Source: Thermoplasmata archaeon (GTDB lineage Archaea > Thermoplasmatota > Thermoplasmata > Lutacidiplasmatales > UBA184). Taken from it: a stretch of DNA of 64,000 bases. The stretch is taken from the NCBI GenBank assembly GCA_028864975.1, contig JAGWLG010000013.1, positions 13,252 through 77,251 on the forward strand, given 5' to 3'. A program made the position numbers and the translations under genes. The notes under the pieces were generated by a model. That model made no database searches, was not told the origin of the DNA, and saw only the letters and a list, made by a program, of their open reading frames with translations. This document shows positions 31,635 to 51,732 of this stretch, piece after piece (positions within the stretch are counted from its first letter, which is position 1; each line of letters begins with the position of its first letter).

Positions 31635-32054
31635 TCAGGGGACGGAGGGCGCCAAAGAGGCGAGCCGTCGGTCGAAGGTGGCGAGGCGATCTATCCGCAG
31701 CTCCCGCATCGAAGCCAGGAGCGCGGCGTCGGTGAAGCTGAGCCGCTGATCGCGGTACTTGCGGAAGACCCCCCACGCAGGCCGCATCAACGAGGTCCCG
31801 AGGGAGGCGATCGAGAGCCCCCGGAGCTCCGGAGTGGGCAACGGGAGGAGCCGGGCCGCAGCCTCTTCGAGGGCGGGGGGGTCCCTTCGGCTGCGGATCA
31901 AGGTGAAGAGCTCGTGGACCACGTGGTCCAGCACGAGGGGAGCCCCGAACTCTCGTCGACCGACACGGTCCAGGAGCGCGGTGGCCCGTTCGTGGGCCTC
32001 ATCATCATGGTTGAGCGCCCCGTAGAGCACCCCGGTGTCGAGGAGGACGCTCAT
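31635..32054 (-). CDS. vapC: VapC PIN-domain toxin
   Basis: VLLDTGVLYG, HE, SFTDA, ATFDRR; ATGA overlap with the antitoxin; ATG 32054 chosen within ORF 31635..32216. Confidence 0.9.
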   Translation of the reverse strand: MSVLLDTGVLYGALNHDDEAHERATALLDRVGRREFGAPLVLDHVVHELFTLIRSRRDPPALEEAAARLLPLPTPELRGLSIASLGTSLMRPAWGVFRKYRDQRLSFTDAALLASMRELRIDRLATFDRRLASLAPSVP

Positions 32055-32326
32055 CGGAAGGTCTTGGCGATGTCGCGGTCGATATCCTCCTCGCGCGAGC
32101 GTTTCCCGGTACGCACGCATAGGCGGTGGAGCCTCTCGAGCTCCCTCTGGGTCATAGGGCGGAACGCGTCGGGTCCCAGGCGGTCCCGTTCGGCCTCGGC
32201 CAGGTCCATGACCCACGAGAGCAGGAGCTGCTGCGGGATCCTCTCGCCATACTTGGCCATGAGCTCCCCCTGGAGCCGGTCCAAGCGGTGCTTGTCGGCT
32301 TCCAGCATTTTCACGGACGTGGTCAT
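32051..32326 (-). CDS. vapB: VapB-type antitoxin (RHH-like N-terminus)
   Basis: TTSVKMLEADKHRLDRLQ...; C-terminal REEDIDR; coupled to vapC. Confidence 0.8.
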   Translation of the reverse strand: MTTSVKMLEADKHRLDRLQGELMAKYGERIPQQLLLSWVMDLAEAERDRLGPDAFRPMTQRELERLHRLCVRTGKRSREEDIDRDIAKTFR

Positions 32327-32333
32327 CGTCGGA

Positions 32334-32366
32334 GTAGAAGTTTCTACAAAATATAAAGCTCTACAA
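32334..32366 (-). promoter_or_regulatory. vapBC TATA box with operator
   Basis: GTAGAA-GT-TTCTAC palindrome (32334-32347); TCTACAA repeated at 32343 and 32360, flanking minus-strand TTTATAT. Confidence 0.7.
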
Positions 32367-32370
32367 GCGG

Positions 32371-32418
32371 GGTTCTGTCCCAGATTCGGGCCGTGGGCCG
32401 GTCAGGCACTCGCCCGTC
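32371..32418 (+). repeat. left terminal inverted repeat (48 bp, imperfect)
   Basis: 37/48 identity to the reverse complement of 33719-33766; outer 26 bp 24/26; CGGGCGAG submotif at the same offset in both ends. Confidence 0.9.
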
Positions 32419-32500
32419 CCGCGTCGGGGCGCCACCTCACCTAGCATGCGATCTCGTGGTCCCCTCCACCTTTATCCGTCGCCCACCACGTAGTTTTCCC

Positions 32501-33739
32501 GTGCCCCCCGTCGTCCTTTCCCTGACCTTCCCTGTGGCCGACCTGCCGCCCCCGGTCCGCTCGGTCATGGCCGAGTTCCGATTGATGGTCAATCGCGGCA
32601 TCCGCTTCGCCCTCGAGGAGAACAAGACCGCCCGGGGGTCCATCCCTCCCTCCTTCCGACAGACGCTCATGCGGGAGCATCGGGTGAACTCGACCCATGT
32701 CGCCGCCGCGCTCGAGGTCGCCCTCACCTGCGCCAAGGGGCACCGACGCCTCCTGCGGAAGGGGAGGGCGGGGCACGTCCCCTACTGCCGACGCCCCTTT
32801 CTGAAGACCTCCAAGTCGAGCTTTCACATCGACCCGGACACCGGGAAGGTTCGCTTATCGCTCCGGAACGGGGAGTGGGTCTCCTTCTTCGTACCCGTCT
32901 CCCAGCATGCACGGCGGACCCTCCTTGACCCGAAGGTCCGCTTGAAGGCGCTCACCCTCACCGAACGGAAGCTCTCCCTCGCCTACGAGGTCGACGCTCC
33001 GGAGCCCTATGTCCCCGAGGCCGCCATCGCTCTCGACACCAATGAGCGCTCGCTCGACGGGGTGCTCGCGACCCCCTCGAGCTGTGAGCCTGTCGTCGTC
33101 CCCTTCCCCGAGGTCAAGAGGGTCCAGCAGACCCACTTCGAGCGCCGACGGAGACTGGGGAGGAAGAAGGCTCACGACCGCAGGGTGAAGCGGCGACTGC
33201 TCGGCCGCGAGGGAAAGCGAGAGCATGACCGGGTGAACTCCCGCCTGCACATGCTGACGAACACCCTGGTCGCCACGGCCCGCGAGAATCGGGCCGTCCT
33301 GGTCCTGGAGGACCTGAAGCCCCCCCAGGGGGGAGGTCGCGGACGCCGGCAGCGTCGTGGGCTCTCCTCCTGGCCGCAGGGGGAGCTGCACCGACAGATC
33401 CGCTACAAGAGCGCCCTGCACGGGGTGCCCCTCATCACCGTGAACCCTCGATACACGAGCAAGACCTGCCCGAGATGTGGCGTGAGAGCCGAAAGGGTGG
33501 GCAAGGTGTTCGACTGCGCGGGCTGCGGGTGGTCCTTGGACCGCCAGCGGAACGCGGGGATCAACATCTACGCAACGGCTCGGCGGGAGACCGCCGAACT
33601 TGGAGGTCTACGGTTCGACCTCGACGCCCTGGCCAAGGATGTGGTGATCCCCCTCTACCCCGCGGGCAGCGCCGCGAGGGCACGGGAGGAGCGGACGGTC
33701 AGGGAGCCCAAGGGGACGGTCGGGCGAGGGACATCCTGA
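32501..33739 (+). CDS. tnpB: TnpB-family RNA-guided protein, RuvC-III D-to-Q variant
   Basis: RuvC-I ALDTNE, RuvC-II VLEDL, zinc finger CPRCG..CAGCG, RuvC-III LDRQRNAGINI; GTG 32501 lies 26 nt after TTTAT (32471-32475). Confidence 0.9.
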   Translation: MPPVVLSLTFPVADLPPPVRSVMAEFRLMVNRGIRFALEENKTARGSIPPSFRQTLMREHRVNSTHVAAALEVALTCAKGHRRLLRKGRAGHVPYCRRPFLKTSKSSFHIDPDTGKVRLSLRNGEWVSFFVPVSQHARRTLLDPKVRLKALTLTERKLSLAYEVDAPEPYVPEAAIALDTNERSLDGVLATPSSCEPVVVPFPEVKRVQQTHFERRRRLGRKKAHDRRVKRRLLGREGKREHDRVNSRLHMLTNTLVATARENRAVLVLEDLKPPQGGGRGRRQRRGLSSWPQGELHRQIRYKSALHGVPLITVNPRYTSKTCPRCGVRAERVGKVFDCAGCGWSLDRQRNAGINIYATARRETAELGGLRFDLDALAKDVVIPLYPAGSAARAREERTVREPKGTVGRGTS

Positions 33740-33766
33740 GCCGCGGCCCGAATCGGGGACAGAACC
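33636..33766 (+). ncRNA. candidate omegaRNA scaffold overlapping the tnpB 3' end
   Basis: AGGATGT (33636-33642) can pair with ACATCCT (33731-33737), enclosing a GC-rich region; position matches TnpB omegaRNAs; boundaries inferred. Confidence 0.45.
33719..33766 (-). repeat. right terminal inverted repeat (48 bp, imperfect)
   Basis: Partner of 32371-32418. Confidence 0.9.
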
Positions 33767-34144
33767 CTCGGAAAAAGTGGCAATCAGCTCCCTACCGGCG
33801 AGGCTCCGCTCCGGTACGATGAAGACGTCGAGCTGAGGTTTGGCCCGGCTACGAAGTGCCTCCAACTCCTTCCTCCTCGCCCTATAGAGGGCGGGAGGGA
33901 CCACGACGAGAATGTCGATGTCGTGAGGAGCGGGCTCCGATGTCACGAAGCTCCCGTTGATAAGGACAGATCCGGAGATGGCCCTGCGCTCGAGGTCCGC
34001 CAAAAGACGACGGAGCTCCCGAAGCAACTCACGACGACGTCGAGTCTGTCCGAACCGCGCCTCCAGCTCGTGGTAGGTGCAGGGCCAGACCCCGAAGGGC
34101 AGCTTCCCATCGTTGTCAAGAAGTGGAATGGTCATCGCCCGCCC

Positions 34145-34804
34145 TCACAGGGTCGAGGACGGGCGGGAGACGCGCGTCGCCGTGAGGCCCCACGACTCCA
34201 GCTCCTCGAACGTCCGCCGCACGGCGGCCTCCAGCAGCCCCCACTGACGCGCGGTGGCAGGAAGCTGCTGCGCGTGGTACGCCCTCCAGGCGACCCGAGC
34301 CACGTACTTGGAGTTCGCCTTTCCCGCGTCCGTGTAGAGGCGCCGACCGAGGTGATCGGGGTCACCTCGCGCGAGGTCGCGGAAGTGGTCGCGCGCTTCC
34401 CGCCAGGCGTACCCGCCTGGCGGCGCGGCCCGCAGGGCCTTCATCCGGTTCTCGGTGCGATCTTCCGAGGGGAGCGCGCGGATCCCCGGGGTCGCGCGCA
34501 GCTCCCGCGTGACGAACTTCGGGTCCGTCATTGCGGCGTCTCCATGACGGGGTGCTCGTAGCTCACGGCGGCATGAAGGGTGCGGACACATAGCTCGCAC
34601 ACGCGCGCGAGTCGCTTCGGGGGGGGAGCGAGGGCCCGCCTTGCGCGTCTTGCCTTCATGCGGGAGGGAGGACGCGCCCCGACCTCGCCGGGGTGCGTAA
34701 GCTACGTAGACCCCCCCGAACCTGGTCCCTTTCGGGAAGCGCTCGCCGCAGTTGCGGCATGTTCGGCAACCGTCGGTGATGTGGACGTAGAATCGGCGGG
34801 CCAT
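34145..34804 (-). CDS. hypothetical protein with Cys clusters (CRTCRNC, CPHPSC)
   Basis: GAGGT Shine-Dalgarno-like sequence before ATG 34804; ends 9 nt before the next start. Confidence 0.55.
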   Translation of the reverse strand: MARRFYVHITDGCRTCRNCGERFPKGTRFGGVYVAYAPRRGRGASSLPHEGKTRKAGPRSPPEATRARVRAMCPHPSCRRELRAPRHGDAAMTDPKFVTRELRATPGIRALPSEDRTENRMKALRAAPPGGYAWREARDHFRDLARGDPDHLGRRLYTDAGKANSKYVARVAWRAYHAQQLPATARQWGLLEAAVRRTFEELESWGLTATRVSRPSSTL

Positions 34805-50502: not shown

Positions 50503-51732
50503 ATGCTGACCGCCGTGAAGTTCCGCCTCTATCCTTTCCCGGACCAGGCGCGGGAGCTCGACCGTCAGCTCTCCGAACTGAACTCCCTCTGGAACCACGC
50601 CCTCGAAGAGCGGTGCGCTGCGTGGAAGAAGGAGAGGCGGTCCCTCACCTTCGTCCAGCAGTGTCAGGAGCTGACCCGGTGGCGGAACTTCGACCGGGAG
50701 GGTCTCGGGAGGGTGAACGCCCAGGTCGCGCAGGAGTGCCTGGCCCGCCTGAACGACGCGTTCCAGCACTTCTTCCGCAGGGTCAAGAGCGGGGAGGCTC
50801 CCGGGTTCCCTCGCTTCAATCGGGAGACCACGTCGCTGACCTATCCCCAGGCCTACGACTCCGTGAGGCTCGTCCCTGGGAGGAACGGGACGCGAAGGCT
50901 CTCCCTGTCCAGGGTGGGGGACCTTCCGATCGAGGTCCACCGGGAGCTTCCCGCGGGCCGTACGAAGACCTGCACGGTCGAGCGGGAGGGAGACCGATGG
51001 TATGCGGTCCTGATCGTAGAGATGGCGGACCCGGTCCCTCCCCCCGACCTTCCTCCCCGCCATCCCTTGGGCGTGGACCTGGGACTCTCTCGCCTCGCCA
51101 CGCTGTCGACCGGGGAGGCGGTCGAGGCCCCGAGGTTCCTCCGACGCTCGGAGGTCCAGCTGAAGCGCCAGCAGCGGAGGCTCTCGAGGAAGCGGAGGGG
51201 CTCCCACAACTGGCGGAAGCAGAAGGCGAGGGTCCAGCGGTGCCACGCGAGGGTCCGGGACCAGCGGCGCGATCTGGCGCACCAGCTCACGTCGACCTGG
51301 GCGCGAGAGCACGACCTCATCGCCTTCGAGGACCTGGACGTGAGGTCGCACCTCATGGGCCCCTTCTCCAAGTCCACCGCCGACGCGGGTTGGGGGATGC
51401 TGCGTCGGTTCGCCGAGTACAAGGAAGCGCGCCGGTCGGGCCGGTACGTCGAGGTGCCGTCGAAGGGGACGACCCAGAGCTGCTCGGCGTGCGCACGGCC
51501 GCATGACCCGCCCCTGACGCTCCGGGACCGCACGTACGAGTGCCCGTGCGGTCTGCGGCTCGACCGAGATGTGAACGCGGCGAGGAACGTGCTCGCCCGC
51601 GCCCTCGCCATCGTAGGGGGGGATACCCCCGAAGTGACGCCGGTGGAGATCGGACCTCCGGTGGCCCGCAAGGGCCGCCGCGTCCGGTCCATGAAGCAGG
51701 AACCGCCCTCGGCCGTGGGTGCGAGCACCTGA
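50503..51732 (+). CDS. tnpB: TnpB RNA-guided endonuclease (intact RuvC triad)
   Basis: AVKFRLYP, GVDLGL (D), AFEDL (E), TTQSCSAC..CPCG, DRDVNAARN (D). Confidence 0.96.
   Translation: MLTAVKFRLYPFPDQARELDRQLSELNSLWNHALEERCAAWKKERRSLTFVQQCQELTRWRNFDREGLGRVNAQVAQECLARLNDAFQHFFRRVKSGEAPGFPRFNRETTSLTYPQAYDSVRLVPGRNGTRRLSLSRVGDLPIEVHRELPAGRTKTCTVEREGDRWYAVLIVEMADPVPPPDLPPRHPLGVDLGLSRLATLSTGEAVEAPRFLRRSEVQLKRQQRRLSRKRRGSHNWRKQKARVQRCHARVRDQRRDLAHQLTSTWAREHDLIAFEDLDVRSHLMGPFSKSTADAGWGMLRRFAEYKEARRSGRYVEVPSKGTTQSCSACARPHDPPLTLRDRTYECPCGLRLDRDVNAARNVLARALAIVGGDTPEVTPVEIGPPVARKGRRVRSMKQEPPSAVGAST

Follow-up and report, generated by a model that had tools for sequence, protein, structure and literature searches.

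A TnpB-family protein with glutamine at the third RuvC position in a transposase-less inverted-repeat element of Thermoplasmata

What does an RNA-guided nuclease of the TnpB family do when one of the acidic residues of its RuvC site is glutamine throughout a clade? The question is raised by a tnpB-family gene in a 64,000-nucleotide stretch of contig JAGWLG010000013.1 (positions 13,252 to 77,251) from the Thermoplasmata archaeon assembly GCA_028864975.1. This whole stretch is referred to below as the window and supplies the coordinates; the genome is designated G000 and the contig C46. The gene is the sole gene of a 1396-bp insertion element with terminal inverted repeats (TIRs). Its product lacks the canonical Asp-Glu-Asp (DED) triad, and the site consists instead of D179, E270, and Q349. 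An earlier note, made from the sequence alone, had recorded the intact RuvC-I Asp and RuvC-II Glu together with the Gln codon CAG at 33545-33547, all of which are found, and had read the protein as nuclease-dead. The reading favored here, with a probability of roughly one half, is that the clade has a conserved non-canonical D-E-Q site, complemented by E182, that would still be working. The residues in question lie as follows.

33035-33046 (+), RuvC-I motif D-T-N-E (D179, N181, E182) within ALDTNE, with the invariant D179 at 33035-33037
33308-33310 (+), invariant RuvC-II Glu E270 (VLEDL), aligned to the Glu of MEDL in Cas12f structures
33539-33565 (+), RuvC-III motif D-R-Q-R-N-A-G-I-N, with Q349 encoded by CAG at 33545-33547

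When the family profile is aligned with solved Cas12f and TnpB chains, "LEDL" falls on "MEDL" and "DRQlNAGlNI" on "NADYNAARNI", and Q349 therefore occupies the position of the catalytic Asp, as the earlier note had proposed. That note also suggested checking DRQ for conservation in the clade. The best 120 database homologues, which are 48-99% identical and come from Thermoplasmata and Methanomassiliicoccales metagenome-assembled genomes (MAGs), all have Gln at this position, in the context DRQ in 118 cases and HRQ and ERQ in one each. At 25 related loci, Gln is encoded by CAG in 17 and by CAA in 8, and four codons serve for the Arg before it; this synonymous mix argues for selection on the residue and not for decay. 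Gln is a character of the whole clade and not a private lesion; a private mutation in a decaying copy without omegaRNA expression was what the note itself had listed as fatal to its proposal. In an alignment of 49 diverse clade members, D179, N181, E182, E270, D347, R348, Q349, N351, and N355 are invariant, while the four zinc-finger Cys residues and R330/R332 are invariant or nearly so.

The distribution of RuvC-I and RuvC-III variants among more distant relatives draws attention to E182. In an exhaustive search of representatives, the nearest 50%-identity clusters carry DRQ, DKQ, NRQ, DRH, NRH, or NKH, all of them with DTNE, and archaeal relatives of about 30% identity with D-x-N-L-x-N in RuvC-I have DRD. 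Among 67 full-length 50%-identity representatives that keep D179 and E270, the RuvC-III residue is His or Gln in 25 of 33 with Glu three positions after the RuvC-I Asp, against 4 of 34 without it. Eight representatives have both the Glu and the Asp and look like intermediates; a branch that gained a new carboxylate and then lost the old one would leave such a pattern. In the structural model, D179 ends the strand 174-180, N181-E182-R183 form the next turn, and Q349 lies in the first turn of helix 348-363. E182 is thus a candidate for the compensating acid.

The protein around this site is predicted to be architecturally complete. The coding features are as follows.

32501-33739 (+), tnpB-family open reading frame (ORF), 412 aa from GTG 32501, the likely start; the frame is open from 32393 and ends with TGA at 33737-33739
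33467-33526 (+), zinc ribbon CxxC...CxxC (C323, C326, C339, C342), invariant or nearly so and matched by PF07282
32472-32477 (+), internal TATA-like box TTTATC, about 26 nt 5′ of GTG 32501 and kept in the nearest relative (L020)

The ORF, which reads ...CAGCGWSLDRQRNAGINIY... and contains the RuvC-III segment W-S-L-D-R-Q-R-N-A-G-I-N-I, matches PF07282 (Cas12f1-like TNB/zinc-ribbon) with E = 4.6e-20 and 72 bits against a threshold of 26.3, and TIGR01766 with 52.7 bits against a threshold of 32. With NF040570 (guided_TnpB) it reaches 99 bits, the cut-off being 100, over residues 145-356 of its C-terminal half only, whereas the second tnpB of the window (50503-51732) scores 255 bits; the ORF is for this reason considered a divergent TnpB. 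The second tnpB has LDRDVNAARN, in agreement with the earlier note, and the other readable TnpB paralogues of the genome also have Asp at RuvC-III. An AlphaFold2 model built with 49 homologues reaches a mean predicted local distance difference test of 87.3 and a predicted template modeling (TM) score of 0.78, with disorder confined to residues 275-286 and 382-412. Foldseek pairs it with AsCas12f (8j12_A; E = 1.3e-17, TM 0.67 over 432 columns) and with ISDra2 TnpB (8h1j; E = 2.5e-12), and the predicted structure comprises the complete WED-REC-RuvC-zinc-ribbon (TNB) architecture of TnpB and Cas12f. The box-to-start spacing of leaderless mRNAs is a known rule of archaeal promoters, and the spacing seen here suggests that tnpB is transcribed from the element's own promoter as a leaderless mRNA. 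Fused or longer forms of the TnpB did not turn up, which is weak evidence. PF27234 ("MJ0013") covers the N-terminal part of many homologues, including the relatives P0128, P0154, and P0167; in the Pfam copy used, hmmscan gave no match to it in P0030 or P0022.

RNA guidance would require a scaffold, and one is found at the 3′ end of the gene.

33578-33704 (+), conserved structured RNA, the core of an omegaRNA-like scaffold, found by RNAalifold in the family alignment and lying over the 3′ end of the ORF
33578-84/33593-99, 33603-08/33617-22, and 33627-34/33697-704 (+), helices 1-3 (RNAalifold)
33641-42/33691-92, 33649-52/33684-87, and 33658-65/33673-80 (+), helices 4-6 (RNAalifold)
33705-33744 (+), variable, poorly conserved linker from the RNA core to the right TIR, containing the stop codon and the segment 33731-33737
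33767-33788 (+), right flank, the putative guide template, beginning with one 8-nt copy, CTCGGAAA, of a target-site duplication (TSD)

From an alignment of 26 elements over their final 240 nt, RNAalifold derives six helices with 35 pairs, and 21 of these pairs show compensatory changes. Paired cells amount to 94.1%, compared with 36-56% once the 3′ partners are slid along by 1-3 columns, and double-change cells number 115, compared with 11-37 after such sliding; in 500 shuffles, the observed pairing, double changes, or covariation score was never reached. One helix, for example, reads GGAGGUC/GACCUC or GGGGGUC/GACCCC, where a synonymous Gly change is paired with a Leu-to-Pro change. DNA conservation in the final 240 nt exceeds what the protein needs, and the final 30 codons, which are disordered in the model, are near-invariant as DNA. 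This strong covariation indicates that RNA guidance has been retained. The structure is visible only in the family alignment: folded alone, 33560-33790 is no more stable than its shuffles (z = -0.22), and an Rfam scan of 32000-34300 gave no family at E ≤ 1. The stem proposed in the earlier note, AGGATGT (33636-33642) with ACATCCT (33731-33737), is present in this copy but is not conserved, since its pairing across 26 relatives (50.3%) equals that of the shuffled and slid controls; 3 of its 7 pairs hold in L020, and its 5′ arm overlaps helix 4. The proposal that the 3′ region of the omegaRNA is the element's own TIR holds by position, the last 22-49 nt before the right boundary being the right TIR, which is expected to form the 3′ end of the guide-RNA scaffold. 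The 22-nt guides that the flanks of the three copies in G000 would supply have no further match in that genome at up to 2 mismatches. One of these copies is a solo right-end fragment of 193 bp at C73:21585-21777 (L013:1501-1693), 95% identical to the window copy, whose first base coincides exactly with the 5′ edge of helix 1 (about 33577) and whose other limit is the end of the TIR. Several substitutions in it disrupt pairs; it may have been left over from a deletion, or may be an omegaRNA unit that stands alone.

The element that carries this module is defined by its ends and by its copies.

32371-33766 (+), whole insertion element, 1396 bp, delimited by the TIRs and by the homology limits of genomic copies; its sole gene is of the tnpB family, and it has no transposase
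32371-32392 (+), left TIR, outer 22 nt GGTTCTGTCCCAGATTCGGGCC, with an imperfect repeat continuing to 32419
33745-33766 (+), right TIR, with an imperfect repeat from 33718 over the last ORF codons and the stop

The inverted ends pair 32370-32419 with 33718-33767 (50 nt, 78% complementary). The right end, which the earlier note had matched to the minus strand of the left, is a true TIR: the outer 22 nt have one mismatch and coincide exactly with the end of similarity among the three copies in G000. A genome-wide search finds two copies and one fragment there. Of the second copy, the left end closes contig C102 (96% identical) and the right end opens C79 (99%). Among 251 Thermoplasmata genomes, 27 have matches to the family, 1-7 in each and many at contig ends, and copies of one genome are 91-95% identical to each other. 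A survey of 80 loci of relatives found clear TIRs in 26 (GCTTTGGGATTTTATTC, GCTTTGAATCAAAACC, GGTTCTGTTGCG...), and 16 of these 26 have 9-bp direct target repeats (at least 7 of 9 matching, many perfect). A further relative, in G126, has the perfect 9-bp duplication CCACTCAGA. None of the 80 loci has a transposase gene inside the element, and none of the neighboring genes is conserved, the best cluster (DUF835) occurring at 4 of the 80 loci at most. The TIRs and TSDs exclude the mechanics of IS200/IS605 and IS607. Classification as an IS200/IS605 (IS1341 group) or IS607 element is accordingly rejected, and a Y1 TnpA (PF01797) was found in none of the genomes G000-G003.

The target duplication of the window copy can be read from two contigs. 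The C102 copy is preceded on its left, and the window copy followed on its right, by the same 8 nt, CTCGGAAA. When these two flanks are joined with one CTCGGAAA removed, a 139-aa DUF6932 ORF is restored, the TGA of which overlaps the ATG of the next gene. Both flanks therefore belong to a single insertion site with an 8-bp duplication, and C46 consequently connects flanks of two different copies, the left of one and the right of the other, either through an assembly join across the repeat or through recombination between copies. The flanks of this split site are window 33767-34135 and C102:49700-49748 (L012). The 175-aa ORF at 33608-34135 (-) is the DUF6932 gene, with element sequence as its final ~53 codons.

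The place where these elements insert also follows a pattern, represented in the window by one feature.

32348-32357 (no strand assigned), TATA-like, A/T-rich box left of the element, lying 15-24 nt from the TIR core and 28 nt from the start at 32326

An A/T-rich heptamer (like TATAAA or TTTAAA) occupies positions -24 to -18 relative to the left TIR core in each of the 28 elements whose ends are defined (left flanks of L021-L097, L150, and L149, plus the window), with the orientation of the element fixed. The A/T fraction at the heptamer is 0.61-1.00, against about 0.3 elsewhere, in a genome of 67% G+C, and the right flanks of the 28 elements show nothing comparable. A divergent host ORF often begins 35-65 nt to the left, and at the C102 site the box lies 37 nt from the ATG of the next gene. 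The simplest reading of these sequences would be an oriented insertion just upstream of the B recognition element (BRE) and TATA box of a gene pointing away from the element. The A/T-rich box is then probably the BRE/TATA of the divergent host gene, and the insertion pattern a promoter-upstream "safe-haven" target rule. The signal may be read by the transposase, by TBP/TFB bound at the promoter, or by the TnpB complex. Since the element has a promoter box of its own, the external box seems not to be needed for tnpB expression. To the left of the window element, 31635-32326 (-) holds a PIN-domain (VapC-like) gene and an upstream 91-aa ORF without a Pfam match, both transcribed away from the element. 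Together they look like a toxin-antitoxin (vapB-vapC) module, and the 28-nt spacing makes the window box probably the promoter of this divergent operon.

An element with TIRs and TSDs and no transposase would be moved by some other enzyme, or by TnpB itself. The left TIR reads GGTTCTGTCCC..., and both marks of IS6-family ends are present, namely a GGTTCTGT-type TIR and an 8-bp TSD. The GGTTCTGT terminus and GGCTTTG... are presumably like the ends of IS6 and IS903 elements, as given by the IS26 and IS903 consensus. Related TIRs occur on the IS6-like elements L114 and L132, and the first 14 TIR nt of the TnpB element L078 are identical to those of L132, which comes from another Thermoplasmata genome and has an 8-bp duplication. 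A 1074-bp IS903-like element of G043 ends in GCTCTGTAGAAAC, against GTTCTGTAACA in the TnpB element of that genome, with 8 of 11 terminal bases in common. The sole IS6-like (PF13610) element of G000, at C63:136-1877 (L100/L114), has ends GGGTTCCGTTTCG...; it encodes a 341-aa zinc-ribbon and DDE_Tnp_IS240 protein, has 24-nt imperfect TIRs GGGTTCCGTTTCGTAAAGGGTGAG, and is accompanied by an A/T-rich run CTTAAGTATTT 11-21 nt beyond one end. Mobilization in trans by a DDE enzyme would be the conservative reading.

The search for the enzyme itself covered the transposase families PF01797, PF13610, and PF01609. A resident IS6-like transposase was rejected as the partner: its termini are similar, yet it does not co-occur with the TnpB family, and none was found in G126, G253, G043, G105, or G006. 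The IS6-like gene of G001 has no recognizable TIRs, and the IS4/IS5-type (PF01609) elements checked in G000 and G001 have unrelated ends. Since copies within a genome are 91-95% identical, the transposase may be one that has been lost or that visits. The earlier note's cognate DDE transposase is thus plausible as a mode of mobilization, given the 8-9-bp TSDs and IS6/IS903-like termini, but no transposase with matching ends was found in G000 or G001, and its suggestion that TnpB is guided to TIR sequences or steers such a transposase is not supported. A TnpB-less element of G001 at C2:498981-500030 (L103:982-2031) is 1050 bp long and has TIRs GCTGTGGGATTTTAATG and GCTTTGGGATTTTATTG of the same type as the TnpB elements of that genome; it has no TnpB homology and a lone 175-aa ORF without a Pfam match, and it may be another non-autonomous rider on the same transposase.

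The favored reading can now be stated as a mechanism. The element is one copy of a non-autonomous IS family of about 1.4 kb in Thermoplasmata, with ends GGTTCTG... or GGCTTTG... and 8-9-bp TSDs, and it would be inserted in trans by an IS6/IS5(IS903)-like DDE transposase beside TATA-like boxes. The omegaRNA scaffold lies over the last ~55 codons and is predicted to run into the right inverted repeat, so that the guide would be copied from the right flank. The site made up of D179, E270, and Q349 with E182 may have kept metal-dependent chemistry, be it to cut or nick DNA under guidance, to process its own omegaRNA, or both. Such chemistry would serve the retention and spread of the element, for example by homing into empty alleles.

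A number of observations weigh against this mechanism. The canonical RuvC-III position has no acidic residue, and Gln is the classic inactivating stand-in for a carboxylate; D179 and E270 could be conserved for RNA processing alone; and the association between the RuvC-I Glu and a non-Asp RuvC-III residue (Fisher p ~1e-7) is measured by a statistic that ignores kinship. As to mobilization in trans, a search of G000 with the 22-mer TIR at up to 3 mismatches returned only the five ends of the TnpB copies, and a scan of that genome for GYTYTG...CARARC pairs returned this element alone. The same-TIR search of G001 gave only TnpB elements, the 1050-bp TnpB-less element, and two solo ends. IS6-like transposases and the TnpB clade occur together in 3 of 27 genomes, against about 2.5 expected by chance (251 genomes), and G126 and G253 have no PF13610 or PF01609 match. 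The main competitor is possible but less probable, and holds that the D-E-Q site cannot cut and that the protein-omegaRNA complex merely binds a flank-matching site, like Cas12m, Cas12k, or TldR. It could then act as a roadblock, or as a marker that licenses or blocks a transposase at its own junction or at the empty allele, with D179 and E270 kept for omegaRNA processing. Such a binder accords with Gln at the catalytic Asp position and with a conserved RNA-guidance apparatus, and IS6-type replicative transposition, as is generally known, leaves no excised donor to repair, which makes a nuclease less needed. Any DED mutation abolishes activity in tested TnpBs, as stated by Wiegand et al. (10.1101/2023.11.30.569447), and Cas12m2 exemplifies a conserved altered triad that goes with binding alone (PMC10442227); both findings count for a binder and against a working site. 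However, only one residue of three has changed here, and over 100 diverged sequences keep the remainder of the site invariant; E182 co-varies with absence of the Asp, no conserved partner gene or second genomic guide target is seen, and a selfish element is not known to profit from binding alone. The naturally dead TldR lineages, moreover, decay progressively and truncate at the C-terminus (10.1101/2023.11.30.569447).

Other readings give the protein a part in transposition itself. In one, which is quite unlikely, the TnpB-family protein either picks the A/T-box target for another transposase or catalyzes the TIR/TSD insertion. It would account for tnpB being the sole gene of a TSD-making family, for the oriented, fixed-distance heptamer in 28 of 28 elements, a motif that resembles T-rich transposon-adjacent motifs (TAMs) and is situated about 16 nt from the left end, and for the lack of co-occurrence with IS6-like transposases; the RNase-H-fold active site is like that of DDE enzymes, and multicopy genomes are without a TIR-matching element or Y1 TnpA and, in the case of G126 and G253, without a PF13610 or PF01609 match. 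On the other hand, no TnpB is known to transpose DNA, the termini are like those of real IS6- and IS903-like elements, and the A/T box is well explained as the host BRE/TATA of a divergent gene. The missing transposase is also less telling than it seems: three families were screened, MAGs are incomplete, IS copies are often unassembled, and with copies 91-95% identical the enzyme could have disappeared or could be brought in by plasmids or viruses. A related speculation, unlikely as well, makes the D-E-Q TnpB-omegaRNA a non-cutting or nicking targeting module of a DDE-style element, comparable to a minimal CRISPR-associated transposon without the CRISPR. Recognizing the empty allele or the A/T box, it would steer or permit TIR/TSD insertion in a fixed orientation and at a fixed distance of about 16 nt, and in the extreme TnpB itself would insert. 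That the window copy is instead a decaying pseudogene with Gln as a private inactivating mutation can hardly be credited: nothing beyond the single substitution speaks for it, and it is ruled out by Gln in 120 of 120 homologues with both CAG and CAA codons, the intact ORF, and the RNA structure, as well as by the confident model and a second copy that is 96-99% identical over its assembled parts.

The nearest known counterparts of the D-E-Q site are the TnpB branches with rearranged RuvC-III. In the accessible text of Altae-Tran et al. (PNAS 2023, PMC10691335), six large branches have an altered RuvC-III, the largest with Asp to His and several restricted to archaea, and conserved specific alterations of this kind are read as probably active. 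The present clade resembles these "RIIIr" branches (the archaea-only RIIIr-6; RIIIr-4 with Asp to His) in that a conserved non-acidic residue replaces the RuvC-III Asp branch-wide in an archaeal group, and its sister representatives carry His there. It differs in having Gln, in keeping a C4 zinc finger that RIIIr-4 lacks, and in having no ribbon-helix-helix (RHH)/MazE partner; the co-varying RuvC-I Glu is not mentioned in the accessible text (PMC10691335). TIR-flanked TnpBs associated with DDE transposases (DDE-1 to DDE-6, with ISL2, IS630, and IS1031 partners) and solo TnpBs moved in trans are also described in the accessible parts of PMC10691335 and PMC13565253. Like these, the present element has symmetrical inverted ends and a tnpB 3′ end less than 250 bp from the transposon end, in this case without a transposase. 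Unlike them, it has IS6/IS903-like termini and 8-9-bp TSDs, and oriented TATA-adjacent insertion does not appear in those same parts of PMC10691335 and PMC13565253.

ISDra2 TnpB (IS200/IS605; 8H1J, 8EXA) is similar in fold, in a scaffold that extends over the 3′ end of the gene to the right boundary, and in the single-gene, IS1341-like unit; its D-E-D triad, hairpin ends without TIR or TSD, Y1 TnpA, and TAM abutting the left end are absent here. IS6 and IS5 (IS903 group) elements share the GGTTCTGT... or GGCTTTG... termini, with TSDs of 8 bp here and 9 bp in relatives, but this element has no DDE transposase (PF13610) inside and carries TnpB and omegaRNA as cargo. Cas12m2 (type V-M) likewise has a conserved non-canonical RuvC triad in an otherwise intact effector; its His-Asp-Asp triad binds one Mg and the non-target strand without cutting (PMC10442227), and unlike this TnpB it is CRISPR-associated and not transposon-borne. 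TldR shares with the present protein its TnpB ancestry, an altered RuvC site, and retained RNA guidance, but lacks transposon ends, resides at fliC or oppF loci, is often truncated at the C-terminus, and is guided to host promoters. According to its authors, single DED substitutions often give spurious "dead" calls, and for this reason they demanded at least two DED mutations (10.1101/2023.11.30.569447). The nuclease-dead, TldR-like character that the earlier note derived from one substitution is therefore not upheld. The protein is full-length, with its zinc finger, RuvC-III helix, and C-terminus kept, D179 and E270 are invariant, and E182 co-varies; the gene is mobile, multicopy, and TIR-bounded, with no fixed neighbor and no second genomic target for its guides. 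A TldR-like domesticated repressor is rejected on the failure of three defining features together with this lack of a second guide target.

The locus joins two known kinds of system, RuvC-III-altered TnpBs and DDE/TIR-associated TnpBs. Gln with a co-varying Glu, a solo TnpB within IS6/IS903-like ends across Thermoplasmata, and TATA-adjacent oriented insertion were not found described in the accessible literature. Cas12 descends from TnpB, which also serves as a compact scaffold for genome editing, and a large natural D-E-Q clade with a co-varying Glu tests the limits of rebuilding a RuvC site; depending on the biochemistry, it could represent a new type of catalytic site, a nickase of natural origin, or a natural, full-length programmable DNA binder. 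The element also places an obligate mobile element-guided activity (OMEGA) module inside archaeal DDE-type (TIR/TSD) elements, an association regarded as rare in prokaryotes, and raises the question of what use a guide-RNA nuclease is to a transposon without scarless excision. Its oriented placement next to TATA boxes may be the first example of an archaeal insertion sequence that targets "safe havens" upstream of promoters.

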